A stretch of 37,511 nucleotides of DNA from the NCBI GenBank assembly GCA_010093995.1, contig ML992503.1, forward strand, positions 242,984 to 280,494, in the 5' to 3' direction. Positions 3,001 through 27,745 of this stretch are shown here, in pieces. Position numbers and translations under genes: made by a program. The notes under the pieces were generated by a model. It had not been told where the DNA came from. It ran no database searches and was given only the letters and a program-made list of their open reading frames with translations. This DNA is from Elsinoe ampelina (lineage: Eukaryota). Each line of letters begins with the position of its first letter. Within the stretch, counting starts at the first letter, position 1.

Positions 3001-3034
3001 GCCTAATTATCTAGAGAGAGCTATATTCTTAACA
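1..3034 (-). mobile_element. Ty1/Copia LTR retrotransposon family A, copy 1 (5' half; runs off the left edge of the window), RIP-inactivated
   Basis: Reverse complement of 3918-6960 (position 1 pairs with 6960). 5' LTR at 2832-3034 begins TGTTAAG on the - strand and is followed by GGTTATAAGCCCGG. The gag-pol relic starts near 2373. Confidence 0.95.
2832..3034 (-). repeat. 5' LTR of Copia A copy 1 (203 bp)
   Basis: Matches LTRs 3918-4118 and 9086-9286 apart from transitions and a 2-bp indel. Confidence 0.93.
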
Positions 3035-3090
3035 TATATAATAGTAAAATTTAGGCTAAGTAATAGCTACTTATATAAGACCTAACGATT

Positions 3091-3260: not shown

Positions 3261-3345
3261 ATTACTAATATTAAGGAAGAATTAAAGTATTATTATATTA
3301 TATTATTATAGTAAAGAAATTTATTACTCTACCTATACTATTTCT

Positions 3346-3908
3346 CTAGTATAAGCTACTACCTAAAACTCTAATTCTTAACTAACTACTAACTATAAAC
3401 TTCTAATAGTAGCGCTTAGTAAGGCTAGAGTTCTTATAATTAATAGTAATATACTTAGTATAGATAGCGTTAAGGTTTATATCTATAAATAAGTATTAAT
3501 TAAGGTTTTAATATATATTAAATAGACATATACCTTCTATATATCTAATAATAAATACCTCTACTAATTCTTAGAGAGCTCTAAGTATATTAGCTATCTA
3601 GTAATTAACCTTAAGAGTAAGCTATATATCTTAGAATATCTTATAGATAAGGCGAGAAAAGAGAAGTTTATAGAATAATAATTAAATATTCTTCTAGTAG
3701 TAACAAATCTTATAGAGAGTAATAGCTACCTTCTATTAGTTCTACTCTATAATTAGAAACTATAATAAATACTACTAGGCTTAAATCTCTACTTCTTTCT
3801 AGGCTTAGCTTAGAATTATAATATCTTCTTTATAGTAGGTTACTTCCCTTTATAACTTCTTTCTCTAGGACTAGTAGTAGCTTAAGAATAACCTTTTTTA
3901 CGTACTAT
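3346..3908 (-). pseudogene. Histone H3-like gene, copy 1 (3 exons; introns 3726-3772 and 3483-3533), RIP-inactivated
   Basis: De-RIP reading MARKK...KPRKKQRFKPG/TVAL.EIRRYQK...KLPFSRLI.EI...GALQES.EAF...E/D.NLNAIHAKRVTI..KD..LAKR. Introns are GT..AG. Colinear with 19497-20049. The stop position is uncertain. Confidence 0.88.
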
Positions 3909-3917
3909 AGTAAAGTA

Positions 3918-4118
3918 TGTTAAGAATATAGCTCTCTCTAGATAATTAGGCTATAAAGTTATATAACCTTAAGTTATATAATGCTAAGGCCTAGGGATTT
4001 ATAGCTGTTCTTTCTTCTAGTAGATAGACTTCTTAATTAATTAACTCGTCTATTACCTAACTAGTGTACGATTAGTTCTATATAATATTCTACCCCTAAA
4101 CGTGTCTTCTACTTAATA
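3918..4118 (+). repeat. 5' LTR of Copia A copy 2
   Basis: TG...(C>T)A ends; direct repeat of 9086-9286. Confidence 0.96.
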
Positions 4119-4132
4119 GGTTATAAGCCTAG
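4119..4132 (+). promoter_or_regulatory. Primer binding site, internal (half) tRNA-iMet type
   Basis: GGTTATAAGCCTAG here and GGTTATAAGCCCGG in copy 1, directly after the LTR. This is the RIP form of GGTTATGAGCCC, as in Ty5/copia. Confidence 0.8.
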
Positions 4133-4587
4133 AGCTATAGTATAAGTATAGAATTGTATATACCGTAGTTAAGTATCTACGTTATTAAAATTAGGCCGGA
4201 TTCTATTAGTATTCTCCTCCGTTTCCTCTCTATTATCTTAATCTTAGATAGATTAGTAGAGGCAGTATAAAGCGTAAAAGACTAGTTACTTAGTACATTA
4301 AGTAGGACATATTAAGACGTCTACTATAGATTTATTTCTATAATTGTATAACAGCTGCTATTTATTAGCTATAAATAACTAAACAATAACTAAACAATAT
4401 TTGTTTTATTACTATTTTCTCTCTTAAGATTAAGTACCTATTAATCTTATTAACAATTATCTAGTTAAGACTAGTATAGAGATCTTAACACCTAGAAGAA
4501 TTAACTTAAAGGTTATTAACCTCCGGATTCCAACCTTTATTTATTTATTTATAAAGTTCTTTTCTACTCTAGAACTTATCTTTAGCT

Positions 4588-7500
4588 ATAAAAAACAATA
4601 ATACTTAATTAAGGCAGCTAGTACCTATACTATCTAAAGATAACTATAAGAAGTAGTTCTAATAAATAGAGCTCTAGCTTATATTAAAGAAGGTATTATA
4701 GACTCTTACTTCCCTTACTAAACTGTTAGTAATAACTCTAGGGTTATTATTAACTTCCTTATTTAACTCCTAGTATTCTCCTCTATTAGTAGAGGAGAAT
4801 AGTACTACCCTTTACTAGATTTATAGATATATCTCTAAGAGAGATTAAGAAATAATTTAGGAATAGTAGTAGGCTAAACTAGCTTAGGAGAAGCTAAAGA
4901 GCAAGTATATAAAGTAGATAGGTATATAGGTAAGACAACTTTAGAAAGAGTTTATAATATATACTATAGGTAATAATATAACTATCTTAGATGCCTAGTT
5001 ATACCTAACTATATTAGGAAGGAGAATTAATAAGTCTTTAAAGATTAAGTAATACTCCTTACTAATAATAAGAATTTAAAGACTACTTAGTGCTCTTCTA
5101 GCTTTATAGTTAACTATAAGAGATACCTTAGATACTTAACTCTACCTTAGTATAGATAAGATCTATAACATTCTTAAAGAAAAGAAAGCATAAAAGAGAG
5201 AAGGGGAATCTACTATACTTATAAGAGGTAAGCTATAATAGGGAACTAGTAGGAGCTTAAATTATATATATATCTTATATAAGGAACCTAGACACTCTAT
5301 GTTAAGGTGTTCTTATTTCTAATAAGCTAAGAAGTATATCTAGCTATTCTATAGAGTTACTAAAAGGAGTAGCTCTATAAGGAGATAGTTACCTAAGCGC
5401 TAGAAACTACTTAAACTTATAAGATAGCTTACTAAGAGAATAGACTTCCTTAAAGTAGCTAAATTAAGAAGGAGAGGTAAAGCCTATCTAGCTACTAAGA
5501 GTAGTTTATTATTAATATCTCTATCTCTACTACTAGAAGTTCTATCTAGGGATAAAGAGCTTAAAACTATAGGTTCTATATTAGAGGTTTAAGGTAAGCT
5601 TCTATATTATTAGTAGATACTTAACTCTAGAGTATCTAACTATATAATAGACAAGCTAACTCTCTTTAGAGGCCTATTAAGCAAGATTCGTACTTAATAG
5701 ATCTAGGTTAAAAAGAGTTACTTTTAGTTATAGTTAATAGAAACTATAGTTATTAAGACTAAGAAGAGAGATAAGATAAAGATATAGGCTCTTTATGTAC
5801 CTAATCTTAGTATTAATTTAGTCTCCTATTATAAGCTATACTCGGATTTAGGGGTTTCTAGAGTTTTTAATTTAAATTTGTTTCTTATCCTTAATTAGTA
5901 GAAGCAACTATTGCTTAAAGCTAGAATTTAAGAGGAAGTATATATTATCTAATTCCTCTTTAAGTAATTAGCTAATTAAAAGCCGCATTCTAGATCTAAG
6001 CCTAGCTTAATTCTAGATCTAGCTAATTAGGATTTAGCATTCCTTACTACCTAGCTTATAATTATATTATAGACTAAGTATGTATATCTAACCTAGGATA
6101 AGTAATAAGAGGATCTTATTAACTTAGGACCTAATAACTCTAAGATAGAGTATTAGCTCTAGTATAGGAGATTTACTTACTTTAGAATTAAGAAGCTTAG
6201 GGATCTTTATAAAGTTATAACCCTTAAGAAACCTATTAACCTAAACTATAATCTATCTATTCTATATAAGGTCTATTCCCTTACTAAGATAAGGAATAGA
6301 AAAGGTAAAACCTTATAGAAAAGACTAGAGGTTCTTTAGCTTATCTATACTAATATCTATAGCTTAATTAAAGTAAGTAGAGAAGAATTTAGATACTTTC
6401 TAGAGCTTATAGATAGCTACTTAAGAATAATATAGATTAGTCTACTTAAGATAAGAGATAAAGCTCTATAAAGGCTTATTAAGTAGAAGCTAAGAGTTAA
6501 GAAGGAAAGTAATACTAAGGTTAAAGTTACTAGATTAGATAATACTAGTAAACTTAATAAGATTCTAAAGTAGTAGGAGCGCTAAGAAGATATCTATTAT
6601 ACAACTACTAAGCTATATAATTTAATTTAGAATAGACTAGTAGAGAAAGACATCTAAACCTTAGAGAATAGTATAAGAGTAATACTTAAGGACTTAAAGA
6701 TGCTAAATAAGTTCTAGCCTAAAGTAGTTTAGGTAGATATATACCTAAGGAACAGGACAGTAACTAGACCTATAATCAATAATAAACAAGTTATACCTAT
6801 TAAGGCCTATATAGGCATTAAGCTATTAGTTAATTATATTAGAGTCTAGGGCTATAAGGTATATACCTATATAAACCTAAAGTCCCTTTCTATATATAGA
6901 AGAAAAGATAAGCTTATAGATAGAAGGAGAGTAGGAGTATTCCTTAGCTATATAGATAGAACTAATAGGATATATAAGATATAGGTATTTAATAGGAAAG
7001 TAGTAATTATATTACTAAATGTTAAATTCTCTAAGTTTAAGAAAGATAGTAATATTAATCTTAGTATTAGGATTAATACTATAAGCAATTAAGCACTAGT
7101 TAGGAGACTAGTTAGTAGACTAACTTAGATTTAGACTAAGGTTAGATCTAGGATAGACTAACTAAATTAGCCTATTTAAAATAAAGCACCTATAGGAAGA
7201 ATCTTCTTATATATTAAGATCCTAAGAGTTAACCCTATTAACATTATAGATTTCTAACATAGAGAAGAGCTAATAGTTTAATCTTTACTAACTAACTATA
7301 TAAGTTAATCACTTAAGAGATTAAGAGATAATAACTCTAATAATAAAGGCTCTAAAGCTAAGTACTATAGAGCTTTTATTACTAAGTATATTAATTAGCA
7401 AGATAAGGTTAATAAGATTACTATAATAGTCTCTATTAAGTAACATATCCTAATCCTAAGGGACTACTATAAGGCTATTACTAATCTAGTATAGGGAAGC

Positions 7501-9057
7501 AAATAGAAGAAAGTAATTAATATAGAGCTTAATACTCTACACTTAAACAATATATAGGAAGAGGTTATTTCTCTAAAGGGATCTAACTTAGTAATATCTA
7601 AATAGGTCTTTAATATTAAGTATAATATAGATAGCTCTATTAAAAAGTTTAAGGCTAGACTAGTTACTAGAGGCTTCTTATAGAAGTATAGCATTAACTA
7701 TAAAGATATATTTATACTAATAGTTAGAGTAGATACACTTAGGCTATTCTTCGCTATTGTTTATATATATAACCTTAAGTGTCACTAGGTAGATATTAAT
7801 AACACCTTTATAGAGTTCTTTCTTTATAAAAGGATTTATATAAGGCTACTACCTAGACTAAAGGTTAGTTCTAGATTTGCCTTCCGGATTCTAAGGAGCT
7901 TATATAGACTTAAGTAAGCTACTAGAGACTAGAACTAGCACTATATCTCTAAGCTCCTAAAGCTAGGCTTTACTTAGAGCGAAGTAGACTCTTATCTTCT
8001 TATATACTATAATAAGAAGATTATTCTTTTAGTTTATATTAATAATATACTATTTGTAGTATAAAGTAAAAAGAATATCTAGTAGTTTAAGTAAGAACTT
8101 AGTAAGATCTTTAAGATTAAAGATCTTAGTAAGGTCAATAAAGTTCTTAGGGTTAAGGTTATAAGGGACAGATAATAAAGCACCTTAAGACTTAATTAAA
8201 CCTACTATGTAGATAATATGCTATAGAGGCTTAATATAACCTCTAACAAGGTTACTCTAATAAAGCAGCTAATAGATAATAAACTCCCTTAAAGAGCTTA
8301 GGAAGATAATATAAGGTTTAGTAGAACTAAGTACTTATATACTATTAGAAGCTAGATATACCTTAGCACTCTAACAAGGCTAGATACTGCCTTTGCCTTA
8401 GGAAGGCTAAGTTAGTTCATAGCAGATCTAATAGATAGTTATACTATTAAGATAAAGAAGATGTTAAGATATATTAGATTAACTAAAGATCTTAGTATTA
8501 TATTTAGAAGGAATAGAAATAAGACCCTTAAGGGATACTCTAATTTAGACTATGCCTTAGACAAGTTAGATAGAGTCTCTATCCTTAGATATGTCTTTAT
8601 ACTTGTAGGTAGTTCTATTAGCTAGATAAGTAGGAAGCAGAAGTCTGTTTTAACCTCTACTATAGGGGCTAAATACATAGTAATATACTCTTATATAAAG
8701 AGATTACAGTTCCTGTCTTAGTTACTAAGAGACATAGGCTGTTATAAGATAGTTAGGCAATTACTATAGAGGCTAACTATAAAGGAATCTTAGAAAGCAA
8801 TAATAAGATTACCTTTTACTACTAGGATTAATAGTAATAACTAAGTAGCTCTTTTACTTATAAAAGAGCTATATACTTATAAAAGGGCAAAGTATATTAA
8901 TGTTGCTTACTACTACGTTAGGAGGCTATAGAGGGACTAGAGGATTTAAGTAGAGTTTATAAAGATAGTAGACATAGTAGCTAATAGGTTAACTAAGCTA
9001 TTATAAGGTTAGATCTTTATAAGGTTTATAAAGTAACTTAGCTTATTATTAACCTAA
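4588..9057 (+). pseudogene. Copia gag-pol polyprotein relic (~1490 codons)
   Basis: De-RIP motifs: CX2CX4HX4C knuckle ~5267-5310; protease WILDSGASNHM ~5614-5646; LWHRRF.H ~6157-6180; integrase core ~6340-6760; RT (KARLV.RGF.Q, LYGLKQA.R.W, LVY.DD) ~7450-8250; RNase H (GYSDSDYA, KHIDV.YH) ~8530-9050. Confidence 0.93.
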
Positions 9058-9085
9058 TAGCTTATCTATAGGAGCTAAGTAGGAG

Positions 9086-9286
9086 TATTAAGAATATAGC
9101 TCTCTCTAGATAATTAGGCTATAAAGTTATATAACCTTAAGTTATATAATGCTAAGGCCTAGAGATTTATAGCTGTTCTTTCTTCTAGTAGATAGACTTC
9201 TTAATTAATTAACTTGTCTATTACCTAACTAGTGTGCGATTAGTTCTATATAATATTCTACCCCTAAACGTGCCTTCTACTTAATA
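9086..9286 (+). repeat. 3' LTR of Copia A copy 2
   Basis: Direct repeat of 3918-4118, preceded by a purine-rich tract and followed by the TSD. Confidence 0.96.
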
Positions 9287-9623
9287 AAGTAAGAGGTTAT
9301 TTATATATAGCTAAGAAGTTAAAGTTCGTATATAAAATTTTAATATATATAAAATAGTAAAAAGAAGAGGCTAGAGTAAGAAATATAAAACCTATTATTA
9401 GATATGCTATTTACTATTAATAATAAAGAATAATAGAATAATAGTAAATAACTTATATAATAATAGCTTTCTTATTCCTTACTCTAGCTTCTCTTTTTAT
9501 TATTTTATACATTTATAAATTATAAATTTCTAACTCTAACTTTCTCTTTATACCTTTACCTCTTTTACTTACCTTATATATAATTTATATACTATAAATA
9601 CTCTTTTTATTACCTTTAATTAA

Positions 9624-9802
9624 ATATCTATACCTATAGAAGACATTAAGATAGAGTAGAAAGAGTAGGTAGTAATTAAGTAAGAAGAAGACAATAGAGA
9701 GAATGTTCTAAGAGAATTATTAGGGGTATTAATTATAGTCTCTTATTATATATAGTTACTAACAATACTAGAGATTTAATTCTAAGTAGTAGAAAATTAA
9801 AC
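9624..9802 (+). pseudogene. Truncated 5' fragment of the acidic-tail ORF3 paralogue (exon 1, intron 1, start of exon 2)
   Basis: Colinear with 20389-20567; similarity ends abruptly at the hAT TIR at 9803. Confidence 0.75.
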
Positions 9803-10190
9803 TAGAGTAGTTAGTAGATAGTAGGTATTCTACTACGGGTAGAGTAGAGTATTATTTCTTAGCATAGTAGGTATAGGTTAGGTAGAGTATTCTTAGTAGT
9901 AGGTATAGTAGGGGTTAGGTAGTAGATATTTTATATACCTAAATACTCTACCTACTATAACTTACACCTATATATAGGTAGGTATTACGTAAGTAATAGA
10001 AGCTTCTCTTAATTCTCTAATATAAGACATTATATAGAATTTAAAATTAGAAAGGACAGTAATAATTATAGTCTCTAATTATAGCATCTTATATGCTTAG
10101 TTATTATAATTATAAATAGTTCTATTCTATACCCTTATAGATAATCTTATATGCTTTACTAGAGGCTTGTTATTATTAATATTATTATTC

Positions 10191-10394
10191 TAATTACGAC
10201 TAGCAAGATAAGGGAGTTAATTATATCTATTTATTAAGATATCGAGACTTAGAAGAAGAAGAAGAAAAGCTAGTATACAAAGCACGCGTAATATCGAGGG
10301 CGGAGCAGCTAGAAGCCTAGGCCGCGATACTAAAATTACATAACTAATCTAAACTATATCCTAACTAAATCTAGTTCGTATCTATCTCGTATTA
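10191..10394 (-). repeat. 3' LTR of Gypsy B copy 1
   Basis: Direct repeat of 16376-16579; the PPT complement CTATCTTCTCTCTT is adjacent at 10395. Confidence 0.95.
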
Positions 10395-10717
10395 CTATCT
10401 TCTCTCTTAAGTGTATTTACTCTTAAATACTATTATATATTATTTATTAATCTATTTCGGCCTTAGCTTATCTATGTAAGAGTCTAGATAGTTATATAGC
10501 ACGTTAGCTACTCCTTTAAGATTGTTAATTAGCCACTAGGTAAGATTCTCTAGATAGCTCTTCTAGCTTATATAAGTAACTAGTTTACTACGTAGTATAT
10601 GTATATTAACTACGTCGTCTACCTCGTATTTCTCTTTACTATTAACTTCTATCGGAGGTAGTTCCTTAAAGACTTAGCCTAGTAGAGAGTTATTTAGATG
10701 CTTAGTAAGTAGATTAG

Positions 10718-10921
10718 TAATACGAGATAGATACGAACTAGATTTAGTTAGGATGTAGTTTAGATTAGTTACATAATCTTAGCATCGCGGCCCGGGCTTC
10801 TAGCCGCTCTGCCCTTAATATTACATGTGCTTTATATACTAGCTTTTCTTCTTCTTCTTCTAAGTCTTAATATCTTAACGAATAGACGTAATTAACCCCC
10901 TTATCTTACTAGTCGTAATTA
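10718..10921 (+). mobile_element. Solo LTR of Gypsy family B, in opposite orientation inside Gypsy B copy 1
   Basis: Complete 204-bp LTR with flanks ATTAG (10713-10717) and ATCGG (10922-10926), which differ only by transitions. The uninterrupted site is present in copy 2 near 32861-32865. Confidence 0.93.
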
Positions 10922-13900
10922 ATCGGCGTAGAATATAGAGTAGATTTATTATAGCGTAGCTAGTAGATCTAGCTTATATACTAATAGTAACTACTTCTCG
11001 AGGATCTTATATAGACTAACGTGTTTTAGTAGTAGCTTTAGATTGCTATATAGCTAGAGGTTCTTTATCGATAACTATACTAAATCGCCTACCTTAAACT
11101 CTATCGGCTAGTAGTGCTTATTAGCTTATTCTACTATACGCGATTAGGCAATAGCAAGGTTAGCTTTAGTAATAACTAGCGCTTCTTTTAGTTGTTTAGT
11201 AAGTGTATAGATGTCGACCTTATTTAGCTTAGCTCTTGTTAATAGTGCGTTAAAAGGGAGTTAGAAGCTTAGCCTTAGCTTATATCCTCTAGTAACCTTA
11301 AATAGTAATAGCTTAGTACTCTCTAATAGGTTAACGTTAGTAGAGAACTCTATAACTAGTAGAATAAGAGTCTAATTACTAAAGCGTATAGCGTATAAAT
11401 AAATAACTTACTCGAACTTACAATTTATAACTTCTAATTAGCTGTCTATCTATAGATGCCCTATAGTAGATAGTTTAGTAGTAATCTTTAGGATTTAGTA
11501 GAGCCTCTTCTATACGTCGCTAACGAACTAAGAGCTATAATCTAAGGTAATACTATCTAGTAGGCTATATAGTTTCTACACATAGAAGAATAATAGCTTA
11601 GCTATCTTAAATATAGAGGTTCCTTCTTCTCCCTAGAAGTAAGGGATTAAGTGTTGTTCCTTAGACAAGTAATTGACAATATATAGTACTACGTTATAGC
11701 TATCTACTAGAGGTAGGCTAGTAACGAAGTCTATAGTAATGTATTACTAGGGCCTAACCGGAATAGGTAATAGTAATAGAGGGCTAGCTAGTAAGCTATA
11801 GCGAGCCTTTAAGCGCTTATAGTTATAATAGTTAGCGATAAACCTCTTAACATTAGAATTACACCCGGGGATATAGAAAGTAGACTTAATTATAGTAGCC
11901 GTCTTAGTAGCTCCTCCGTGTATGTAATTCTTTAATATATAAACTTCTTAGATAACTTTTGTAGCTATAGAGAAAGGCATAATTAATCGGCTAGTAGCGT
12001 ATAGTATTCCCTTCTTAATTATAACATTAGTCGATAGTAACTATTTTCTCTTTAGGAAGGCTTCTATTATATAGTAGACACTATAAACTGTCTCGAAGTT
12101 AGAGTCTTATAAGTTAGCTTTAGCTACTTCGTCGAAAAGGAGTAAAGGCTCTTCTATAGCGGAGATAGGTACTATATAGATACCTAGCTCGCGAGCCGAA
12201 ATAGGCAGCGAAATAGGTGCTAAACTAGATCTTAGTTTAGCCTAGATTAGTAATTTAGCTCGGATACGACCTAGATTTAGTTCGTTAATAATATGCTAAT
12301 CTAGCACTTTATATAGTAATAGCGTCTAGCGTAGATTAGAGTCTTCTTTCGAACGTAGTACGTCTCTATTTCTTCTTATAAGTGTGTTAGTCTTACTATT
12401 AGCGGCGCTAGACCTATATATAATCTTAAAGTTAAACTACGTAAGGTAGAGGGCCTAGCGCACTTAGTAGCGTAATAGCTTCTAAGTCTTTATAAAATGC
12501 ATTAAGGATTAGTAGTTAGTAAGGACGTAAATAGCCTTATCGGATTAAGTACTTATAAGCTTAGAGGCCTATTCCTTAAAGGCTTAAACGATTACTAATA
12601 GCTCCTTATTATAGATTACGTAGTTATGTTCGGCTTTGCTTATAGATTTACTAAAGAAGGTAACAGGCTAGAGAACGTCGGAATTGTTATATTACAATAG
12701 AATTCTAGTAGTAGTAGTATCGGAGGCGTCGGTCTTAATAACTACTTACTTCGAGTAATTAAAGTACGCTAAGATAGAGGCACTTATAATAGTATACTTT
12801 ATGTAGTTAAACGTAGTAGTATACTTATTATTTTATAGCGTAGCGTCCTTCTTAAGTAGGTCGTTTAATAGCTTAGCGATAGTACTAAATCCCTTAATAA
12901 AGTAGTAATAGTAGCTATAGAAACTAATAAAGCTTCTTATCTAAGTAGTATTACTAGGGGCTAGTTGTTTCTAGGCTTATATAGCTTTAACCTTCTTTAG
13001 ATCTATCTTAACTCTATCTCGACTAATAATAATACTAAGATACTTTACTTCTGTTAGGTAGAACTTGCTCTTCTTAATATTAGTATTTAGGTCTAAATTG
13101 TAGAGACGTTAGAGTACTAGCTTAATATACTTAGCGTACTCTTAGCAAGTGCCGTCGGTATAGATAAGAATATTATTAAGATAGATTAACACGAAGCGCT
13201 TAAGCATGTTAACAAAGTTATAATTTATAAACCTCTACTATACTATAGAAGCGTTAGTAAGGCCGAATAGCATTACTAACTACTTAAAGTTACCTATACG
13301 TATAGAGAACATAGTAAGGTCTTTACTATCGATAGAGTTATAGAGGTAGTAGAAGGCTTAATAGATATTAATCTTACTAAACTATTTAGCTTTACTTACG
13401 CGCGTAAGTGTTTCTTTAATAAGAAGTAAAGGATAGATATCTCGCTTAGTTACCTCGTTAAGGCTATAGTAATCGATGTAAAGGCGAAGTTCGCCGCTAG
13501 ACTTATAAACAAAGAGAATAAGCAAGGAATAGCTAGCTAAGCTTAGCGTAATAAAGCCTTTATTAAGGTGCTTATAGATAAATAGCTCTACTATATTAAG
13601 CTCCTCTAGTAATAGGCAGCGAAGAGGTTTAGTACGTAGTAGTTTAGCTCTATTCTTAAGTGTAATTTAATTGTTAAAATCTAGCCGATATAGAGGAAGC
13701 ATATTAGATTACTCTTTAGAGAAGACGTTAGTAAACTTCTATAGCTCTTCTAGGAGAACTACTATAGGGTCTAGTTCTAGCTCGGAAGCTATCTAGTAGT
13801 AGTTCTCGATATTCTTTACTAAGATTATAAACACCTTATTCTTTTAGTATTTAGCTACTAATACAAAGGTAGCGGCGCTAATAAAAGCAATAGTTAGCTC

Positions 13901-16375
13901 TTCTTACTTAGTGTTACTTACGTAGGTAGGTACGTAGGAGAACTTATATATTAGCTAAGTACTATAAGAGATTAGGTTAAACTCTCTCTAATTTAGCTTA
14001 AAGTTCGACCTAAGAGCTAGTAGTCGATATAGTCTAGTTTATCCTATCTTAGCGGCTAAGCTAGAACCTAGTTCGTAAGTTAAATTAGAACTAAACTAGT
14101 TCCGAACTAGAGTAGTAGCTTTACCGAGCTAGATTTCTAGATCTAAGCTAGGCTTAGATCTAGATTCTAGTCTTTTAATTAGCTACGGTAGCTCCTACTT
14201 AATAACTGTCGGTAAAAACTCTTCTTTGTATATAACTTAGCTATGCTTATAGTCGATAGTAGCCCTATTAGCCTTAAGCTATCTAAGGCTAAGGATAATA
14301 TTAAATCGGCTAATATCTATAATACGGAAGGTAGTAAAGTTGTTTAGCTTACTAGAAATAGTAGTAGTAAGAGAGACGCTATAAGTAACTTATTCTATCG
14401 GAACACTATTATAAGTCTAAAGCTAAATAGAGCTAGCTAGTGCCACCGGACAGCTAAAACTCTTTAGCTTATTAAGAATATTATAGTTAACTATAGCGCC
14501 GATAAGCGCGCTAGTATCGATAAAGACTTAAAGTGCAATAGTACAAGAGTAGTTATAGAGGTTATAAATAGTAATAAGAGTTATAATAGCGAGGATATAG
14601 TAGCTAACGACGCTATTTAATAACTATATACCTCCGGATCTATCTCGAATTACTCTTATTCTACTAGAGAATAGAACTTGTTCTCTAGCTACTTATTTCT
14701 CTAGCTAGATAGGCTAGTAGACTTATAATCTATTTCGAGGTTAAACTAAGACTAAACTAGATCTAGTTCGTAAGCCGAACTAGTATTAACTTAGTTACTT
14801 AATTCGGCTAAGCGATCCTAGAGCTATTATATCTCTTCTACGGCACTAATACGTATAGGACGTAAAGCGGCGTAAGTAGCCTTCTCTAAGGCGCTAGCTA
14901 TATACTTAGTAGAGATATAGCTAGGCTTACTACATATATAATAGGTAAGTATTAGAGCTAGACGAAAGAGCTATAGGGCTCCTCTAGTAATAGAGCAAAA
15001 GGTAGCTAGAGTAGTAAGCGCGGAAGTAGAATAAGACACACAGATTAGTACTATAGTAACGTAGCTTATAGCTAGGCTAGAGTATAAGGCCTAAGTACGC
15101 TTAGTAATAAGGTTGCTCTATTAAATATTATAGTTAGTAGCGTAGGCCTTTATAATAAAGGTAGAGAGGTTATTAGTATTAAAGTTAATAAGAGTAACGC
15201 GTAGTTTATTAGATATCTTCTAACATAACTAGTAGAGCTATTTATCCTTAGCAATCTTAGCGCGAAGAGCGTACTTATTAAATTCGCTAATAAAGGAGTT
15301 AAAAGAGGTATTACGCTAGAAGAGGCTAGTAAACTAGGCGCGCGTAGTAGCCTTATAGTTAGGGTCTTCGAAGCGCTAAGCTAAGATACTAAGGGTAGCT
15401 TTAACGTTAAGGGTGTTATTACCGGCAAAGTCTATAATAAGAGTATATACTTCGCTAGAAAGGTGCGAGTAGAGATAGGTAAACTAGGTTACCTCGGTAG
15501 AGAAATAGTTAGTATTAGTACGTATCTTGTTCTTTATTTAGTGCTTAAAAACCTTAAACTGTTCTAGAGTGCCACTAGAGAAGATAGCGAGGTCTAGTAT
15601 CTTTTTAGACAATATAGTACCGTATATAGAGGGAGCTAGTATAGTACGTTCTATCTTAGCTCTTAGCTAGGCTAGTTTAGCCTTAAGTTTGCTAATGTCT
15701 ATAAGGTAGCGCGTAGTTTAGATAGTAAGATTATTAGTAGTACTATTAGTAGTATCTAGTTCTATTAGAGCGTTATCTAACTAGTTACGTAGGTTAAGAG
15801 TGTTAGCATATACTAAGTTATATACGGTAACCTATCCATCGTAGGTAGACTTAATAAAGGTAAAGGCCTTATATAGAGTAGTTATCCTATCTATCTCTTA
15901 TAGCCTCTTCTTAAGGTTAGTGTTACTAAGGCAGATAAGGTCGTAATAGGCTAACTAGACTAGTTCGTTATTGTTGTTAGCGGGGGGTAAAGAGATCTTA
16001 CTTACGTAGCAATTATCTTCGCTATAGTTAGAGTAAGCTATGCTCGGCGTAGTTAGTTATAAATAAAATAGTGTAAAAAGTCAACGCGTAACAAAGGAGA
16101 TATTAAAAATTTTTAGCCGGCGGCCTACTTTCTTTAAGAGTTGTCTATAACTCGACTTATTACCTTCTTCTTATATCTTCGAAGTTTGTAGTATTAACCT
16201 ATATAGTAGTAGTAAGGATCTATTATAGTGTACGTAGGAACTATAGTTATAATAGCTTCTTCTTTAATTCTTTAATTCTTCGTAAGTAATAGTTAGTAGT
16301 TATATAAGTAGTAGAATAACTAGATAATTTAATAGCTCCGTTGCTTAGTTATAGTTGTTCGAAGTCTCGATATAG

Positions 16376-16579
16376 TAATTACAACTAGCAAGACAAGGGA
16401 GTTAATTACGTCTATTCGTTAAAATATCGAGACTTAGAAGAAGAAGAAGAAAAGCTAGTATATAAAGCATATATAATATCGAGAGCGAAGTAGCTAAAAG
16501 CTTAGGCTATAATACTAAGATTACATAACTAATCTAAACTATATCCTAACTAAATCTAGTTCGTATCTATCTCGCATTA
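16376..16579 (-). repeat. 5' LTR of Gypsy B copy 1
   Basis: Matches the other four family-B LTRs. Confidence 0.95.
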
Positions 16580-19496
16580 TATTCTCCTTGTAATTGCTTA
16601 GAATAAAGTTACTCTCTTAAGAAGGTAGCTTAAGTAGGTTATCTACCTTGTCTATAGTAGTATCTTTATAACTACTATTAATAGTATCTTAATAACTACT
16701 AGTAATAATATTACTACTTAACAAAGAGAGACTTATTATAAGCTTTATAATAATAAGCTACTAGATAGTTTATATAGTAAGCTAGTGTCTTCTATTACTA
16801 ATAATATTCTTTACTATATTAAAGACATATTCGACACCTACGCTAGCTATTAGTATAGCAAGGATATTATAAGTAACTTTAGTAAGCTATAGAAACTTCT
16901 TCTTATTAGTCTTCTACTAATTAAGCAACTTAAATTTAGTCCCTAGTTAAATTCGAATAGGAGAGATACTAAGGTAATTCTTACTCTCTTAATATATAGT
17001 TTATTTCTCCTTCTCTTATTTTAGAGATATAGACTCTATACTAGATTAGAAGCTAAAGCTAGTCTACGGGGAGGTAATCTATATAGGTACTCGAGGTCGA
17101 CGGAACTAATCCTCTTTATTATTAGACAAGATTATAGCGTTAAGAGTTTTAGGTTAACTTAATAGTAATTTACTATTATAATAACTAAGGTAGTTAAGGA
17201 ACTACTCGCGATACTTCCCCTTATTAGTTTTAGCCTAGGTCTCGTCCTATATTACTATTAGCTTTACTATAATAATATATCTATAAGCTATAAACCTCGT
17301 AGGGAGTTAGCTTTTATAAAGGGTCAAGAATAGTGCTATAATTAAAGAGGTAACTTCTCTTATTATTAGTGTAAGAATAGTACTTTAATAGTTTATCTTA
17401 ACTATATTATACTACCCTTTTAACTACTATAGGCTAACGCTCCTTATTATTCTTCTTCTCGCCTATAATACTATTCTTAATTATATTAAGAAAGTCGAAT
17501 AGTTAATTATATATTATCTAGATATATAAGATCTATAGGCGGCTAATAGTACTTAGAGAGGTAGTTACTTCCTTAAAGTTCTTAAGTATTTTTATAACTA
17601 GCTTAAGGTAATTCTATTCTATACTATTAAGATAAAGATACTTAAGATTCTTATAGTCTAGATTACTAGTGTTATTACTAACTAAGTTAGATCTAGCACT
17701 AGTAGAGCCTTTTAGTATAATTTCCTACTTAAGCTATTTATTAATAAATAGCCTAAGCTCGAGACTATACTTATATATATTAAAGGTTAAGTTCTACTAC
17801 GTCTTAATATCTTAAATAATAACCTTACGCTCTCGAGGCGTTATAGTTTATTAGAGGTTAATAAACCTCTTAAACCGTTAAGGTAATTAGTTAATAGTAA
17901 TATAAGTTACACGAAGCTAGTAATTTATTAGACTATAATTAGAAATTGTAATTAGAAAGCTAATCTTCCGAAGCGAGTTTAGTACTAAGAGTTTAGTAGA
18001 GATATCTTTTAAGTGCTATCTTTTAAGCCTAGTAGCCTACTCTTCTTCCTTAGTAGTCTAAAGGTTAAGGTGCTTAATAATGTCTTATATAACTAGGTTA
18101 ATAATATATATAAGGCATAGAATAGTATTCTCTTATAAGTTCTATATAATACCTATCTATCTTAGAAGCTTATATATAGTCTTATATAACATATAATTGT
18201 TACTTACATTATCTATAGTAATTGCTAGAAGCTAGTTCTAGAGATTATACTACCGGAGTACCTATATAAGCTTAGTAGCTATATTCTGCCCTATATATTA
18301 ACTACGAAGTAGTACTATATCTAATAGTTGTTCCCGGAGATACTATTAGTTATTAATATAATAAGCTTTAATTGTAATAAAGCCTAAGTAGTTGTTAGTA
18401 GACTAGCTATTAAGTGTAATTAAAATCTTTATAGTCTTATTAAGATTCTATAATAAGCTTTTATAGAGAGTCTTAAATTTGTTAATAAAGAGTATAGCGA
18501 AATAACTACGGCTTAGTATAAGTACTCTCGGGTATAAGAACTATATAAACTATTAAAATAATAGTCGCTTAATAGTGTAGAAGGACTAATTATAGTTAAT
18601 AACTGTTTAAATAAGCTCTAATTAGAAGTAAGTAACTAAATATAATAGAACGTTTTTCTAATCGATTACTAGATAAGCTCGAAGTTATATAAGTACTCGG
18701 ACTACTAGTACTTTCTTATAGACTAGTCTTGTTACTTTCCTACAAAAATTTAACTCTCTGTATTTACTTATTACATTAGTACTATTCTTTCCTAGCGTAG
18801 AGTAGGTAAGAGCATTACTATACTATAGGTAGTAAATATATAGACGACTATCTAATACCTATATAGCTTCTCTAAAATATCTCTATACTTGTCTAGTTCT
18901 TAGTTTTAAGTTCTAGTATAGTATATAGAACTCCTTAGAGTAACTATAGCAAGATACCTAAAGTATTAAGTTCTACTATATTAAGAAGCTTTAGAGGTCT
19001 ATTTGTTCGTTAGGATATACTAAGGGATTAAGCGTTAGACACTTTAGAAGATACTATTATATAGGCTAACTACCCTTATTGCATTATTATATAGTAAAAC
19101 AATAATTAAGCAAATCTTAAGAGATAGAGATTACTATAACTAATAGAGTTAATAGAAGATATAGTTATAGATCGATTAGATCGTTAAAGTCTACTATAGT
19201 AGAGTAGAGGTTATATAGTATTATAGATAGTATAGGTGTTTATAATGTTATACTTATTTAGCTATATAATTTTAAATAATAGATTTGTTTTTAGACTATT
19301 AGAAAGTCTTCTCTACTATTACTTTACATAAGGCATTTTAAAACGCGCTAGTAGCCCCTATATAATTACAAATATTAATTATAACTAATATTTTTAATTC
19401 TAACCTTTAAAGTATATAATAAATAGAAAGGATTAAAGTATTATTATATTATATTATTATAGTAAAGAAATTTATTACTCTCTCTATACTATTTCC

Positions 19497-20049
19497 CTAG
19501 TATAAAGTACTACCTAAAGCTCTAACTCTTAATATATTACCGACCTAGAACTTCTTATAGTAGCGCTTAGCAAGGCTAGAGTCCTTAGCCTAGATAGTAA
19601 TATACTTAGTATAGATAGTATTAAGGTTTATATCTATATATAGTGTTAATAGAGAATTTAACATATATTAGATAAGTATATACCTTCTATATATCTAATA
19701 ATAAATGCCTCTACTAATTCCTAGAGAGCTCTAATTATACTAGTCTAGAAGTAAAGGTTAGACTTAAAGTTCTAAGTAATCTTATAGATAAGGCAAGAAA
19801 AGAGAAGCTTATAGAATAATAGAGTAATCTCTTTCTAGTAGCAACAAATCTCTTAGAGAGCGATAGCTAGCTTCTATTAGTTCTATACTATAATTAAAGA
19901 CTATAATAATTACTACTAGGCTTATATCTATACTTCTTTCTAGGCTTAGCTCTAGATTATAGTATCTTCTTTATAGTAGGTTACTTCCCTTTATAACCTC
20001 TTTCTCTAGGACTAGTAGTAGCTTAAGGACAATTCTTAGTACGTACTAT
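19497..20049 (-). pseudogene. Histone H3-like gene, copy 2 (exons 19914-20049, 19684-19866, 19497-19633; ~151 aa), RIP-inactivated
   Basis: De-RIP reading MARTKN...[54 protein letters not shown].EAF.....E/D.NL.AIHAKRVTIQAKD..LAKR, a clear H3 histone fold. Introns are 47 and 50 nt, GT..AG. The stop position is uncertain. Confidence 0.92.
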
Positions 20050-20109
20050 AGTAAAATAAGAGGTTATTTATGTATAGCTAAGGAGTTAAAGTTTATATAT
20101 AAAATTTTA

Positions 20110-20280
20110 ATATATGTAAAATAGTAAAAAGAGAAGGCTAGAGTAAGAAATATAAAACCTATTATTAGATATGCTATTTACTATTAATAATAAGAATAAT
20201 AGGAGAATAATAAATAACTTATATAATAATAGCTTTCTTGTTTCTTACTCTAGCTTCCCTTTTTATTATTTTATATATTT
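20110..20280. repeat. ~40-bp imperfect inverted repeat in the H3L/ORF3 divergent intergenic region (also at ~9343-9513)
   Basis: TATATGTAAAATAGTAAAAAGAGAAGGCTAGAGTAAGAAA (20111-20150) pairs with TTTCTTACTCTAGCTTCCCTTTTTATTATTTTATATA (20241-20277). Confidence 0.8.
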
Positions 20281-20388
20281 ATAAATTGTAATTTCTAACT
20301 CTAACTTTACCTTTATACCTTTATCTCTTTTACTTACCTTATATATAATTTATATACTATAAATACTCTTTTTATTATATTTAATTAA

Positions 20389-21657
20389 ATGTCTATACCT
20401 ATAGAAGATATTAAGATAAAGTAGAAAGAGTAGGTAGTAATTAAGTAAGAAGAAGACTCTAGAGAGAATATTCTAAGAGAATTATTAGGGGTATTAATTA
20501 TAGTTTCTTATTACATATAGTTACTAATAATGCTAGAGGTTTAATTCTAAGCAGTAGAAAATTAAATACTAGATCTCTTAGCGTAGTGCTAGTTAAACTA
20601 GAAAGAGCTATAAGACTAGATTTGTCGCTAGATACTCTAGACCTCTAAGTTAAAGCGCTTATGCTATTAAGTAGAGAGATTATACTTCTTAGCGTATATA
20701 TAAGGAGTAAGCTCTAGCTACTACTTATATAGTAGATTATAAAGTAGTTAGTACTTTACGTAACAAGATTAAGATAGAGAATAGATAGGACTAGCTCTCT
20801 ACTAATAAGTAGAATATTAAAATTAATAATGCTATTAATAATATAGAGGAGAAATACTTTAATAAGTAGAGAAGTAGTAAGTCTATTATTATAGTATACT
20901 ATTATAGTAGTACTAATTGTTATAGGCGAGTAGCTCGAATTTATATTTATATAGACCTATAAGAAATAGGCTAGTATTAGAAAGACTCTATAAAAGTAAG
21001 AGTATAACAAGATTATTAAGCGTATCTAAGATAATATAGTAGCAAATTAGTAAGGCGAATAATAGCTAATATAAGCCTATACGTATATCTATAGTACTAG
21101 TAGTATTATTAAGAAGCTATAGCGCTAGATTTACTAGGATAGCTATATAAGCCTTATTACTAACGATACTAACAATAAATAGACATATAAGATTTTTTTT
21201 AAGTAGCTTAAAGAGCTCTCTCCTATAGAATTAGTAGTATTATAGAATCCTAACTAGTAGTAAGTTTATTATAGTCTTTAATTATAGTATATTCTAACAA
21301 TTATATAGGCTAGTTATTTCTCTATCTCCTAAGTATAAATATATCTCCGAGCTTAAACTCTATAGTACTAGGCTATACTATAAAGGAGACAATAATAATA
21401 AGTATAAGAAGAAGGTTAAGAAGAATAAGAATAAGATTAAAAGAATATTAGATAAGGAAGCTAGTAGTAATAAGGATTATTATTTAGGTATTAAAGTTAA
21501 AGATAAGTCGGATAGTAAGGATAAGAATAATAAGATTATAAAGTACTTTAAGCTTAAGACTAATAGTAATAACAATAATAAGGATAAGAATAAGAATAAG
21601 AATATAAAGAATAAGAATACTACTAAGGTTAAGGATAAAGAGATATCTAATGCCTAG
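20389..21657 (+). pseudogene. ORF3: 4-exon gene of unknown function (~374 aa) with a long Asp/Glu-rich C-terminus, RIP-inactivated
   Basis: Intact ATG at 20389. Introns 20491-20536, 20877-20925 and 21260-21308 are all GT..CTAAY..AG, and splicing them keeps one frame to TAG at 21655-21657. In 21385-21654, GAT/AAT/AAG/GAA codons revert to D/E runs. Confidence 0.72.
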
Positions 21658-22393
21658 ATATAATAGAGATTAAAAGTATAATTCTATAAGTAGTAGTATT
21701 AGAGAATATAGTTTATAATTAGAATCTATTATTAGTAATTATACTTTGTTATTTTGTATATTACTAATAACCTATAGAGTGTAAAATTTATAACTCTACT
21801 CTAACCTACCCCTTAGCTTAGCTAACTCTAACTCTACCTACTCTCGCGAGAGTTAGCTAAGCCTAGAGGTAGGTTAGAGTAGAGGTAAGTTACCTAGAGA
21901 AAATTCTAACTCTACTCTACTCTATAACTACTCTAATTATAGATATAATTAGTTACTCTAGAATCTAGTATCTATAAGCTTAAGATGTTAGTAGTAGCTA
22001 AGATAAATACTAAGTGTAATCTAATAGTAATAGCTATATTAATTAACACTAGTAGAGTTAATTCCTTTTAATATTATACTTCTTTAGTAATAAAAGCCTT
22101 AATTCTCTCTTTAAGAGTCTTATTATTTAGCCTTTATTTAACCTCCTTTATAGTCTACTAGTTTAGTGTCTATCCTTCTAGCCTTAGATACTTATTTAAG
22201 TAATAGTACTTAATCTACTTATACCAGCCTTAGTATATATATTTAAGCTCCCTAGAGAAACTAGGTTTCTTATAAAGAATATTCTTAGTAGCTATAGAGA
22301 AGGCTATAGCTCCCTTACTAGCCTTTATAGTACTATATAGCTTATAGAGTTTATAAAACTGTCTAAACTTAGTAATTAGTTTAAGTATAGTTA

Positions 22394-24962: not shown

Positions 24963-27745
24963 CTAGTTGTTACCTAATAAGGTAAGACAATAACGCTAGC
25001 TAAAGCCTTAATATAATAAAGATCTATATATTAAATTACTTTATACTAGAAGCCTAGATATAAGAAAATAAGGTAAGAGTAATAATAGATTCGGGAGCTA
25101 ACTATAGCTACGTCTCTATAATAGTTACTAAATAGCTTAAACCTTATTAACATTAGAAGGAGTTACCTTACCTACTTACTATAGCTAATAGAACCTCTAT
25201 AGAGAAGGATAGGAAAGTTACTTAGGAACTATAAAACGTTATAATTAAAATCGGGACATATATAGAAAAACAATTAATCGATATAGTTAACATATAGTAT
25301 AATATAGTACTTAGCATAGACTAGCTTTAATAACACAATCTAGACATAGACTAGATTAAAGAAACACTTAAATTCCCTAAGTGTAATTATAGGACGTAGA
25401 GAGTATAATTAGCTCTATAGATACTAACTATAAGGATAGTATAGGTACGACTAATAGTTAGAGCTATTACTAGCGTAAGTAATTAAGTACTTCCGCCGGA
25501 ATATAAAGACTTTAAGGACTTATTTATAGAAAGGAAAGACATTGTAGCCTTGCTCTAATATAAACTATAGAATTACAAAATACCTTTTAAAGAAGGTAAA
25601 TCCCTAACACACTATTAAGGTCTAATACCACTATCGAAATAAGAGAAGAACGTTCTTAAGAACTACATCGACAAGTACTTACTTAAAGAATTTATACAAC
25701 TATTAAAATTACCTATTGTGCACGGAGTGCTTTTTACACCTAAGAAGGATAAGACATTATAAATATATATTAATTACTAGAAACTTAATACACTTACCCG
25801 AAAGAATTACTATTCTCTACCTAGGATTAACAAACTCTAAGACTAACTACTTAGAGCTAAATAGTTTACTATAATTAATATTAGGAATGCCTATTATTAA
25901 GTATAAATAAAGGAGAGCAAGGAGTAGAAAACAGCTTTTAGGATATAATAGAGTCTATATAAATACCTTGTTATACTCTTTAGGTTAACTAACGCTCCTA
26001 TAACCTTCTAAGAGTTAATTAATAACACTCTATAAGAATACCTTAATAACTTTGTCTTAGCATATCTAGATAATATTATTATCTTCTTAAAGACGTACGA
26101 TAAATATATAGGACATATTTATAAAGTGCTACGAAAACTAAAAGAGAAAGACCTACTAGTAAAACTCTCTAAGTGTAAGTTCTATAAGCATAAGATACAA
26201 TTTCTAGGCTATGTTATATCTACTAATAGTATTAGACCTAATCTAAAGAAGATTAAGTTAGTAAATAACTAGCTAGAACCTACAATAGTTAAGGAGGTTT
26301 AAGCGCTACTAGAGTTCTTTAACTACTACTATAAGTTTATTAAGGGATTCTCCGAAGTAGCTACGCTAATATCTAACCTTATAAAAAAGAAAACTAGCTT
26401 TGTCTTTAACGAAATATATAGGTAGGCCTTTAAGGAGCTAAAGCTTAGACTTATAATAGTACCTATCCTAGCACTCTTTAACCTAGACTAATAAGCACTA
26501 CTAGAAATAGATGCCTTAAACTTTATAATAGAAGTGTGTCTAGTATAGAAAGATATATAAGAATAACGCTACCTAATTATATACTACTTACGAAAAATAA
26601 CTAGGCCTAAACTTAACTACGACATATACGATAAAGAATTACTTATAATTATAGAAGTATTCCGTAAATAGTATATATACCTAGAAGAAACAACCTTACC
26701 TATATAAGTCTATACCGACTATAAGAACCTATTATATTAGACAATAACTAAGGTTCTTAATAGACAATAGGTTCGATAGTTAGAAACACTTACGAGCTAT
26801 AACTTTTAGATCTACTATGTTAAGGGATTAGAGAATAGCAGAGTAGACGCTCTTAGCTAATAACTAGACTACTTAAAGAATATAATAATAATAGAGGCCT
26901 CTATACTAAAGTAGTAAGATAGCGCTTTAGTCTATAAGCACCTAAAGGTAAAGCAATTATATAGCCTTACCTAGGAGCTTACGTAAGAATAGAAAAAAGA
27001 AGTTATTTAAATATACTATAATAACCTAACTACAGGACATAGCAGGATTAATAAGACTATTAAACTTATTATATAAAACTACCTATAGAAAGAACTCCGA
27101 AATAATATTAAGATATATATTACTATATACAATATATACTATAAGTCTAAGCACTTACAATATAAGCTGTATAGCCTACTATAACCCTTACTACTACTAG
27201 ATAAGCTATAATACGAGATAGATACGAACTAGATTTAGTTAGGATGTAGTTTAGATTAGTTACGTAATCTCGGCATTATAGCCTAGACTTCCGGCTACTC
27301 CGCTCTTAATATTATATGTGCTTTATATACTAGCTTTTCTTCTTCTTCTTCTAAGTCTTAATATCTTAACGAATAGACGTAATTAACCTCTTATCTTGCT
27401 AGTTGTAATTACTATATCGAGACTTTAAATAACCGCGACTAAGTAATAGAGCTATTAAATTATCTAGTTATTCTACTACTTATATAACTACTAACTATTA
27501 CTTACGAAGAATTAAAGAATTAAAGAAGAAGCTATTATAACTATAGTTCCTACGTACACTGTAATAGATCCTCGCTACTACTATATAGGTTAATACTATA
27601 AACCCTAAAGATACAAGAAGAAAGTAATAAGTTAAGTTATAGATAACTCTTAAAGGAAGTAAGCTACTAGCTAAAAATTTTTAATATTCCCTTTGTTACG
27701 CGTTGACTTTTTACACTGTTTTATTTACAACTAACTACGCTAAGC

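Follow-up and report, generated by a model that had tools for sequence, protein, structure and literature searches.

The analysed window, a 37,511-nt stretch of contig ML992503.1 of Elsinoe ampelina, contains a dead, RIP-destroyed hAT transposon carrying a histone H3-like gene (H3L). Copy 1 of the element is split by an LTR retrotransposon (10191-16579), which has a 5-bp duplication, TATTC, on either side (10186-10190 and 16580-16584) and separates the left arm (9803-10190), holding the transposase 3' end and a subterminal region, from the main body (16585-21935), holding the transposase (-), H3L (-) and ORF3 (+). A candidate 11-nt terminal inverted repeat is found at 9803-9813 and 21925-21935, with differing flanking 8-mers and an uncertain right end, which could extend to about 22383. 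The transposase contains the Pfam domain Dimer_Tnp_hAT (PF05699, E = 3.1e-07) and is related to the Pyrenophora tritici-repentis hAT protein P0003 (E = 6.6e-76), one of only two protein matches. H3L reaches 21.9 bits with Pfam Histone, under the cut-off of 26.4, and 153 H3 sequences in the PDB match it at E ≤ 0.01 (best 7.4e-08). A second, broken copy of the element is represented by the H3L region at 3266-3917 (84% identical to 19417-20058) and by the intergenic region with the 5' part of ORF3 at 9278-9802 (93% identical to 20044-20573).

The three genes are interrupted by seven segments of 46-50 nt, two in the transposase, two in H3L and three in ORF3, which we predict to be spliceosomal introns. 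The prediction is based on homologue alignment for transposase introns A and B and H3L intron 1, on alignment with H3 for H3L intron 2, and on the reading frame alone for the ORF3 introns, where the frames join only across three GT..AG segments. All seven segments end in AG, six start with GT (intron A reads AT), and the branch site, TTAAC in H3L intron 2, is CTAAC or CTAAT in the other six segments. Five introns carry a dyad, that is, two ATTAYAG half-sites placed 13 nt apart; the sequence-only reading had likewise counted five, out of a total of six introns that must now be raised to seven.

Transposase intron A (17917-17964, minus strand, 48 nt, phase 0) is exactly where the spliced P. tritici-repentis protein leaves a 16-residue gap in its alignment with the window, and the dyad of the intron belongs to two tandem 13-nt units at 17933-17958. 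The intron begins with AT in this copy, where the RIP-free relative P0002 has a Val codon (GTN), and a T>C difference at 17946 in most family copies (contigs of three runs) restores the G of its first half-site. Transposase intron B (17247-17295, minus strand, 49 nt, phase 0) shows a degenerate motif, CTTATAG and ATTATAG separated by 7 nt. It is marked by a frame change, the tblastn match stopping at 17296 and restarting in another frame; P0002 runs into the intron, whose interior scores 20 against ORF3 intron 2. H3L intron 1 (19867-19913, minus strand, 47 nt, phase 1) lies within the codon matching H3 residue 45, exon 2 aligning with histone H3 from residue 46 on, and has an exact dyad at 19888-19907. 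H3L intron 2 (19634-19683, minus strand, 50 nt, phase 1), with boundaries inferred by the H3 alignment and further supported by the frames and by the comparison of the two copies, has one degenerate unit and no dyad. ORF3 intron 1 (20491-20536, plus strand, 46 nt, phase 0) contains a dyad at 20497-20516 with ATTACAT as its second half, and its TACTAAC branch site is retained in copy 2. ORF3 intron 2 (20877-20925, plus strand, 49 nt, phase 1) has an exact dyad at 20888-20907 with the odd spacer TATACT; the RIP-free ORF3 relative P0001 matches exon 2 up to this intron and then continues into a read-through insert. ORF3 intron 3 (21260-21308, plus strand, 49 nt, phase 2) has an exact dyad at 21268-21287 and leads into a 119-codon open frame at 21298-21657.

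All five strong dyads of the copy 1 main body reside in introns, which occupy 338 of its 5,351 nt (6.3%). They begin 6-12 nt after the intron start, and all five are in the sense orientation, as the sequence-only reading had noticed, even though the genes occupy both strands. One further full 20-nt core, at 10065-10084 on the plus strand, lies outside the seven introns. It had been assigned to the transposase 3' end, which it is indeed near, but it runs antisense to that gene on the opposite strand, some 45 nt beyond the probable stop codon (10127-10129) and 262 nt from the candidate left end. This copy matches the start of H3L intron 1 at 27 of 30 nt, including a splice-site-like GTAAT.

The ATTAYAG half-site alone is common, with 74 occurrences in the window, or about one per kb per strand. 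The dyad is not: the exact form ATTAYAG-N6-ATTAYAG has 5 matches in the whole window against 0.07 expected, and the relaxed form ATTAYA-N7-ATTAYA has 11 against 0.55, counts that none of 100 shuffles attained. For the copy 1 main body (16585-21935), 3 exact and 7 relaxed dyads compare with 0.009 and 0.159 in 1000 dinucleotide shuffles, none of which reached either number. Every match lies in the 7,153 bp of hAT-derived DNA (5 exact, 11 relaxed), and the other RIP-mutated repeats, 30,353 bp outside it, contain no exact and no relaxed dyad. The full count thus bears out the earlier impression that the motif does not occur in the retroelements, and each dyad site listed at that time is present as written. 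Half-site pairs at a distance of up to 28 nt show 13 nt as their sole spacing (n = 5), in agreement with the constant period claimed. The sites at 19365 and 19443, already called weaker, are TA-rich and lack the G; both are low-complexity, and the 19443 site has a likewise weak copy at 3292. The sites of the second cassette, 3747-3766 (minus strand), the near-dyad 9732-9751 and 3292, do exist but are not independent, because they are duplicates in the second, broken copy.

Within this element, the motif is not a pair of half-sites around a free spacer. It is a block of 20-26 nt in which a 13-nt unit, TYTYTAATTAYAG, is repeated in tandem, and the spacer, formerly described as variable, reads TYTYTW in five of the six independent sites. 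The likeness among the sites is not confined to the half-sites but takes in the spacer, the 5' splice site and some exon bases. Pairwise matching confirmed that H3L intron 1 and ORF3 intron 3 are identical over 26 of 26 nt. Intron interiors are also more alike than random segments of the element, with a mean pairwise score of 14.19 against 8.29 ± 0.70 (0 of 500 random sets reached 14.19). Six of the seven introns are mutually similar, each with a partner score of at least 14; the sole exception is H3L intron 2 (best partner score 10, null fraction 0.24). An A-free run of at least six nucleotides with at least three T is present in four of the five dyad-bearing introns. Compared with their shuffles, the seven introns and the copy at 10059-10100 show no improved folding (z between -1.10 and +0.82).

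Two relatives not hit by RIP, P0001 and P0002, are each represented by a single protein, and we compared them with the window through their back-translated read-through peptides, allowing RIP changes and with the regions picked after looking. Three introns are entered or crossed by the gene calls of P0002 and P0001. Phe-Ile-Thr (TTY ATH ACN) occurs in each of the three read-throughs, Val-Cys (GTN TGY) opens two of them, and a string of seven residues is common to two that come from different genes. P0002 shares 35% identity with the window (547 aligned columns) and 57% with the P. tritici-repentis protein. Its 16 residues at intron A are absent from all 11 aligned members of the P. tritici-repentis cluster, and the intron length of 48 nt is kept. 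For this region, chosen as above, 40 of 48 positions are RIP-compatible against 27.2 ± 3.2 under the null, a level reached by one of 10,606 windows, which is intron A itself. All 14 half-site positions are compatible, as against 3 of 6 in the spacer and 6 of 12 in the spacer together with the six preceding bases. To judge from these peptides, the motif appears older than RIP. The sequence-only reading had made its case depend on presence in un-RIP'd homologues; matching strings do occur in the protein read-throughs, but the paired form is evident in intron A only. P0001 and intron B of P0002 each show one evident half-site-like string, and the paired form may therefore be lineage-specific.

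We propose that the dyad is the conserved core of paralogous mini-introns and that its half-sites act in the pre-mRNA and not as a DNA site for the transposase, a reading to which we assign an even chance of being correct. The introns would descend from one intron copied within the element lineage, each laid out in the order 5' splice site, about 20 nt of 13-nt units, CTAAY branch site and terminal YAG. The unit would combine a short pyrimidine run with an acceptor-like ATTACAG and occur in roughly one and a half to two copies per intron. The half-sites would then be kept as a pyrimidine tract and pseudo-acceptors, which may help to define, or to throttle, the splicing of very short introns. 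Look-alike introns in all three genes suggest the copying of introns inside a mobile element. Several features weigh against this reading: the full copy at 10065-10084, antisense to the transposase, is in none of the seven introns, the dyad is missing from two of these (intron B being degenerate and H3L intron 2 unlike the rest), the spacer of ORF3 intron 2 differs, and half-sites conserved without their spacer would fit a DNA-binding dyad as well. Common descent and selection are inseparable on these data. It is somewhat unlikely, in our view, that the introns are paralogous and the motif is functionless, a product of recent copying or homogenisation of one intron with the 13-nt period left by slippage duplication. 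Such an origin would account for the likeness of spacer and flanks within the element, for the tandem duplication of the unit and for the folding of all eight sequences no better than their shuffles. However, intron A keeps its 48 nt and its 40 compatible positions against P0002 despite the divergence of the proteins, and its mismatches avoid the half-sites; neutral intron sequence should not outlast such divergence, which counts against a motif without function.

The lead of the sequence-only reading, a tandem DNA site bound by a protein of the element, either the BED finger of the transposase or ORF3, is in our judgement very unlikely. The constant 13-nt spacing, the conservation of half-sites but not spacer against P0002, the restriction of the motif to the hAT and the copy outside the introns, at 262 nt from the candidate left end, would all suit such a site. 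Subterminal transposase-binding repeats of Ac-type hAT elements are short words repeated within one element near both ends, tied neither to introns nor to gene orientation. The motif shows no such clustering within a few hundred bp of the two ends: of six strong independent copies, one (10065) is subterminal and the rest lie inside the element. Moreover, all five internal copies sit in introns and read in the sense of their genes, whichever strand these occupy, neither of which a DNA site needs, and the subterminal regions are rich in a different repeated word, TAGAGTAG-like, and contain a 39-nt palindrome (21791-21887). We consider it extremely unlikely that chance or RIP-driven convergence, in which TA-rich decay makes unrelated introns similar, produced the motif. 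The half-site is a common 7-mer, two half-sites pair mutually only in the RIP-mutated, TA-rich form (the un-mutated comparison being our own reading), and low complexity marks the weak sites (19365 and 19443). Nevertheless, this explanation is largely refuted by the 26-nt perfect match between two introns, by the P0002 comparison with its matching strings in relatives not hit by RIP, and by the fact that the retroelements, 30,353 bp and RIP-mutated to an equal degree, hold no dyad; the shuffles also never attained the observed counts. Among the three readings offered earlier, a common origin of the introns is best supported and an RNA-level role fits the anatomy, while the leading DNA-site reading is left without direct support.

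A bolder version of the mini-intron reading, which we regard as unlikely, is that the hAT lineage carries a self-copying mini-intron of 46-50 nt that spread to all three genes, including the captured histone, and whose copies may also be recombination points at which exons are shuffled between the genes of the element. Recombination between two such introns would then have produced the 2.3-kb chimeric derivative known from P. tritici-repentis. In two of the 11 aligned P. tritici-repentis protein models, an N-terminal exon is followed immediately by the exon that comes after intron A. Within the motif, ATAGTC is complementary to the published recombination word 'gactat', but this hexamer is common, with 30 occurrences in the window. 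If the copies were recombination points, they would offer a concrete case of exon shuffling through related introns in a mobile element. The origin of new spliceosomal introns is an old open question, and recognisable sister introns are rare. In this transposon, whose three genes are unrelated and include a captured histone, six of the seven very short introns are still alike. Un-mutated family members in a sequenced fungus make both the copying of the introns and the role of the 20-nt core directly testable.

A hAT element with an H3-like gene and a further ORF is known in P. tritici-repentis, where it measures about 5.6 kb and, according to a figure legend, ESTs show introns (Manning et al., 2013, PMC3538342). 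Each element combines a transposase of the hAT type, including a dimerisation domain, with an H3-like gene and an additional ORF, and the two are similar in size (about 5.7 kb here, 388 + 5,351 nt), whereas the copy here is RIP-destroyed. The gene order here is transposase, H3L, ORF3, and the unknown ORF is called 'central' in that paper, whose main text uses the word 'intron' once and describes no shared intron motif (PMC3538342). Our literature searches found no published description of the intron motif. As far as the account of Dhillon et al. (2019, PMC6710886) goes, H3-carrying hAT elements of Pseudocercospora, Cercospora and Sphaerulina likewise combine a captured H3-like sequence with AT-rich blocks and are RIP-killed. 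They differ in their length of about 9.5 kb, in an intronless H3 read as a retrocopy, where H3L here has two introns, and in that a dimerisation domain was not found, and their consensus does not resemble the P. tritici-repentis element (PMC6710886).

The introner-like elements of Dothideomycetes are near-identical spliceosomal introns in different genes, presented as evidence of intron multiplication and said to decay into ordinary-looking introns (PMC3609843, PMC4457414). They are described as longer than regular introns, with a stable predicted structure and hundreds of copies in host genes (PMC3609843, PMC4457414), whereas the introns here are of 46-50 nt, not longer, without a stable structure beyond that of their shuffles, and known so far only inside one transposon family, with near-identity seen for three genes of one transposon. 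In fungal introns, most pyrimidine tracts are reported to be separated from the 5' splice site by 8-40 nt (PMC5677156, citing Kupfer et al., 2004), and the motif sits in this usual zone. Such tracts are described there as highly diverse in sequence (PMC5677156), whereas in this element a specific 20-nt sequence recurs.

The window is AT-rich (GC 0.25-0.40) and made up of nested repeats; just four stop-to-stop frames of at least 80 codons are found in 37.5 kb. Its decay to TA-rich sequence is typical of repeat-induced point mutation (RIP) in fungi. Comparing the window with itself revealed LTR retroelements and two copies of a single DNA transposon, which we translated with stop codons as X for domain and protein searches. 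Its minus strand carries a hAT dimerisation domain (Pfam PF05699, E = 3.1e-07). The Pfam histone match of the H3-like gene (H3L) is weak (21.9 bits, under the cut-off) and becomes firm through 153 PDB histone H3 sequences matching H3L at E <= 0.01, the best at 7.4e-08. Only two among 6,181 candidates are related to the transposase at E <= 0.001, namely the JGI protein P0002 (E = 1.1e-81, 35% identity to the window over 547 aligned columns) and P0003, a hAT protein of Pyrenophora tritici-repentis (E = 6.6e-76, 39% identity over the main 442-column match). A published hAT element of P. tritici-repentis, about 5.6 kb long, comprises a transposase, an H3-like gene, and a further ORF (PMC3538342). 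Short contigs, numbering hundreds to thousands, match the family at 17800-21400 in DNA runs with three organism labels. In run X1, the family differences are mostly transitions (A>G 55, C>T 69, G>A 82, T>C 56; transversions 60), an excess expected from RIP.

An LTR retrotransposon (10191-16579) splits the first hAT copy. The 5-bp target duplication TATTC at 10186-10190 and 16580-16584 indicates that 9803-10190 is continuous with 16585 onward, so that copy 1 consists of about 388 + 5,351 nt if its right end is placed at the candidate position 21935. A near-copy of this LTR element lies inverted at 27207-32861 with 90% identity. The right end is supported by an 11-nt inverted match and is uncertain because the 8-mers flanking the candidate ends differ from each other and 21936-22383 has no counterpart elsewhere in the window. 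Comparison of 9807-10190 and 21936-22383 with the rest of copy 1 gave low-complexity matches only. An excision footprint, 8-bp repeats ATTATAGT flanking 5 bp, was rejected since the sequence recurs at five places. The fragments of copy 2 (3266-3917 and 9278-9802) are separated between H3L and ORF3 by a second LTR-type element (3918-9286), whose 200-bp direct repeats occupy 3920-4118 and 9088-9286. An inverted partial copy of this element, with 93.5% identity, fills 1-3036. Between the divergent H3L and ORF3 of copy 1 resides a 59-nt inverted repeat (20127-20185 and 20206-20264, 80% complementary, 20 nt apart), which may be a shared promoter element.

The three genes contain seven mini-introns. 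Transposase intron A (17917-17964, minus strand, 48 nt) coincides exactly with a 16-residue gap in the alignment of the spliced P. tritici-repentis protein to the window. P0002 has 16 residues at this position, which are missing from all 11 aligned members of the P. tritici-repentis cluster. Intron A is in frame (48 nt) and, in P0002, a relative not hit by RIP, free of stop codons, so that the gene caller read through it; a protein isoform retaining intron A is conceivable. At intron B (17247-17295, minus strand, 49 nt), the protein match breaks and the frame changes. H3L intron 1 (19867-19913, minus strand, 47 nt) lies inside codon 45, given that the alignment of exon 2 to H3 opens at residue 46; we found no statement in the literature on codon 45 as a usual intron site of fungal H3 genes. 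H3L intron 2 (19634-19683, minus strand, 50 nt) was deduced from the frames and the two copies and would fall at the Asp codon preceding Thr-Asn-Leu. ORF3 introns 1-3 (plus strand; 46, 49, and 49 nt) are GT..AG segments whose removal leaves a single frame that opens with the ATG at 20389 and closes with the stop at 21655-21657. A branch-site-like CTAAC or CTAAT is located near the 3' end of six of the seven introns, with TTAAC in H3L intron 2.

The exact dyad ATTAYAG-N6-ATTAYAG occurs five times in the window (0.07 expected) and the relaxed form ATTAYA-N7-ATTAYA 11 times (0.55 expected). Copy 1 alone contains three exact dyads against 0.009 expected and seven relaxed ones against 0.159, and none of 1000 shuffles reached either count. 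The other RIP-mutated repeats carry none in 30,353 bp; the motif is therefore not equally frequent in RIP-mutated retroelements or in shuffled sequence. The half-site itself is common (74 copies in the window), and 13 nt is the sole spacing of half-site pairs up to 28, observed five times, which bears out the constant spacing noted in the sequence-only reading. The introns account for 6.3% of copy 1 and hold all five of its strong dyads; these begin 6-12 nt past the intron start, and all five have the sense orientation, as had been claimed. That reading counted the motif in five of six introns: five do bear the dyad, but the introns number seven. The sites it listed in the second cassette (3747, 9732, and 3292) are present, yet they duplicate those at 19888, 20497, and 19443. 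When the transposase frame is followed on the minus strand through the LTR insertion, its first stop comes at 10127-10129 (the tail was matched by eye to the P. tritici-repentis protein), which places the motif copy at 10065-10084 just beyond the 3' end of the transposase in antisense.

The likeness among the introns extends beyond the half-sites. The spacer, previously regarded as variable, reads TYTYTW in five of the six independent sites, and H3L intron 1 and ORF3 intron 3 are indeed identical over 26 of 26 nt. The 10065 copy agrees with the beginning of H3L intron 1 at 27 of 30 nt, GTAAT included, and transposase intron A holds the 13-nt unit TYTYTAATTAYAG twice in tandem. With splice signals excluded, the intron interiors score 14.19 on average, while segments drawn at random from the element give 8.29 +/- 0.70 and none of 500 such sets reached the intron mean; the best-partner score is at least 14 in every intron except H3L intron 2. 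As judged from these comparisons, the introns fit a family of sister introns. Position 17946 is C in most family copies among contigs of three DNA runs, restoring the G in the first of the two half-sites of intron A. One further 13-nt unit, TCTTTAATTATAG, is present in the transposase coding sequence (17336-17348, minus strand), in the codons directly before a conserved ILDP stretch, probably by chance.

Two protein relatives not hit by RIP, whose gene calls run through or into introns, indirectly point to related sequences at the intron positions. ORF3 exon 2 had a sole match among 1.84 billion representatives, P0001 (E = 5.3e-04), which reads on through the site of ORF3 intron 2; beyond it, likeness to exon 3 was recognized by eye. 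P0001 as a query retrieved only itself, and none of 115 candidates passed with ORF3 exon 3 as the protein query. DNA encoding P0001 was confirmed for none of 190 pattern matches in metagenome contigs and none of nine in viral contigs. The 20-mer core ATTAYAGTYTYTAATTAYAG matched 103 metagenome loci, none with intron-like context or further element likeness by blastn, tblastn, or tblastx. Around a dozen AT-rich metagenome contigs (L004, L009, L010, L012, L023, L028, L037, L051, L072, L079, L090, and L095) have a single conserved but unrelated context in common where the 20-mer matches by chance; it is another repeated or conserved locus. P0002 has its 16-residue insert at intron A, and its C-terminal end reaches 23 residues into intron B. 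All three read-throughs contain Phe-Ile-Thr, whose codons (TTY ATH ACN) are compatible with TT-ATTAC-A, and two of them, from different genes, have a seven-residue string in common. Two of the three open with Val-Cys; GTN TGY is a usual 5' splice site in fungi. Allowing for degenerate codons and RIP, 40 of 48 positions of intron A are compatible with the back-translation of P0002 (null 27.2 +/- 3.2), a value reached by one of 10,606 windows, intron A itself. The eight mismatches fall at intron positions 4, 8, 10, 12, 20, 23, 25, and 41, leaving both half-sites fully matched (14/14) and the spacer with the six bases preceding the motif half matched (6/12), where regions were read post hoc and exons were compared at the protein level.

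Convergence by RIP, which could generate similar AT-rich words independently, is largely refuted by the 26-nt identity between introns of two genes, by the match of intron A to the back-translation of P0002, and by the lack of dyads in other RIP-mutated repeats. A DNA-binding dyad is possible, and the contrast in P0002 between intact half-sites and diverged spacer and preceding bases would suit it. However, of the six strong copies that are independent, five lie in the interior of the element, and the element ends carry other words, TAGAGTAG-like repeats and a 39-nt palindrome. Words of the TAGAGTAG and GGTAGAGTA type abound in both candidate subterminal regions (9803-9960 and 21790-21935), and the palindrome occurs at 21791-21829 and 21849-21887; as repeats for transposase binding, they are stronger candidates than the intron motif. 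The tandem protein-binding site favored by the sequence-only reading gains no positive support.

The pyrimidine tract of fungal introns is mostly situated 8-40 nt from the 5' splice site (PMC5677156). Four of the five dyad introns have an A-free T-rich run of at least 6, and each unit resembles a pyrimidine run with an acceptor-like ACAG behind it, both upstream of the true branch point. From the core lying in the pyrimidine-tract zone and its acceptor-like units, we infer a role at the RNA level. The core may help to define, or may damp, splicing of introns as short as these; selection would have retained the half-sites, and the likeness of spacers and flanks would stem from recent copying within each lineage. 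A role of RNA structure was rejected, with none of eight sequences folding better than shuffles (z from -1.10 to +0.82); we read the small hairpin between the half-sites as dependent on TA pairs made by RIP.

In the literature as far as accessible, PMC3538342 included, we found no description of a motif common to the introns of these hAT elements. The P. tritici-repentis models P0007, P0017, and P0008 (473 and 599 aa) share the same N-terminal exon with different downstream exons. In P0007 and P0017 (473 aa; two of the 11 aligned models), it is joined directly to the exon following intron A. PMC3538342 ascribes a 2.3-kb chimeric form to recombination at 'gactat', present in both ORFs. Its complement, ATAGTC, forms part of the motif and is a hexamer common in the window (30 occurrences); predicted models can skip exons, and a tie between the intron motif and this recombination is only a lead. 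The 473-aa models resemble the published 2.3-kb chimeric element in restarting exactly after intron A. The H3-carrying hAT family of Mycosphaerellaceae (PMC6710886) is a different family, with an H3 gene devoid of introns.
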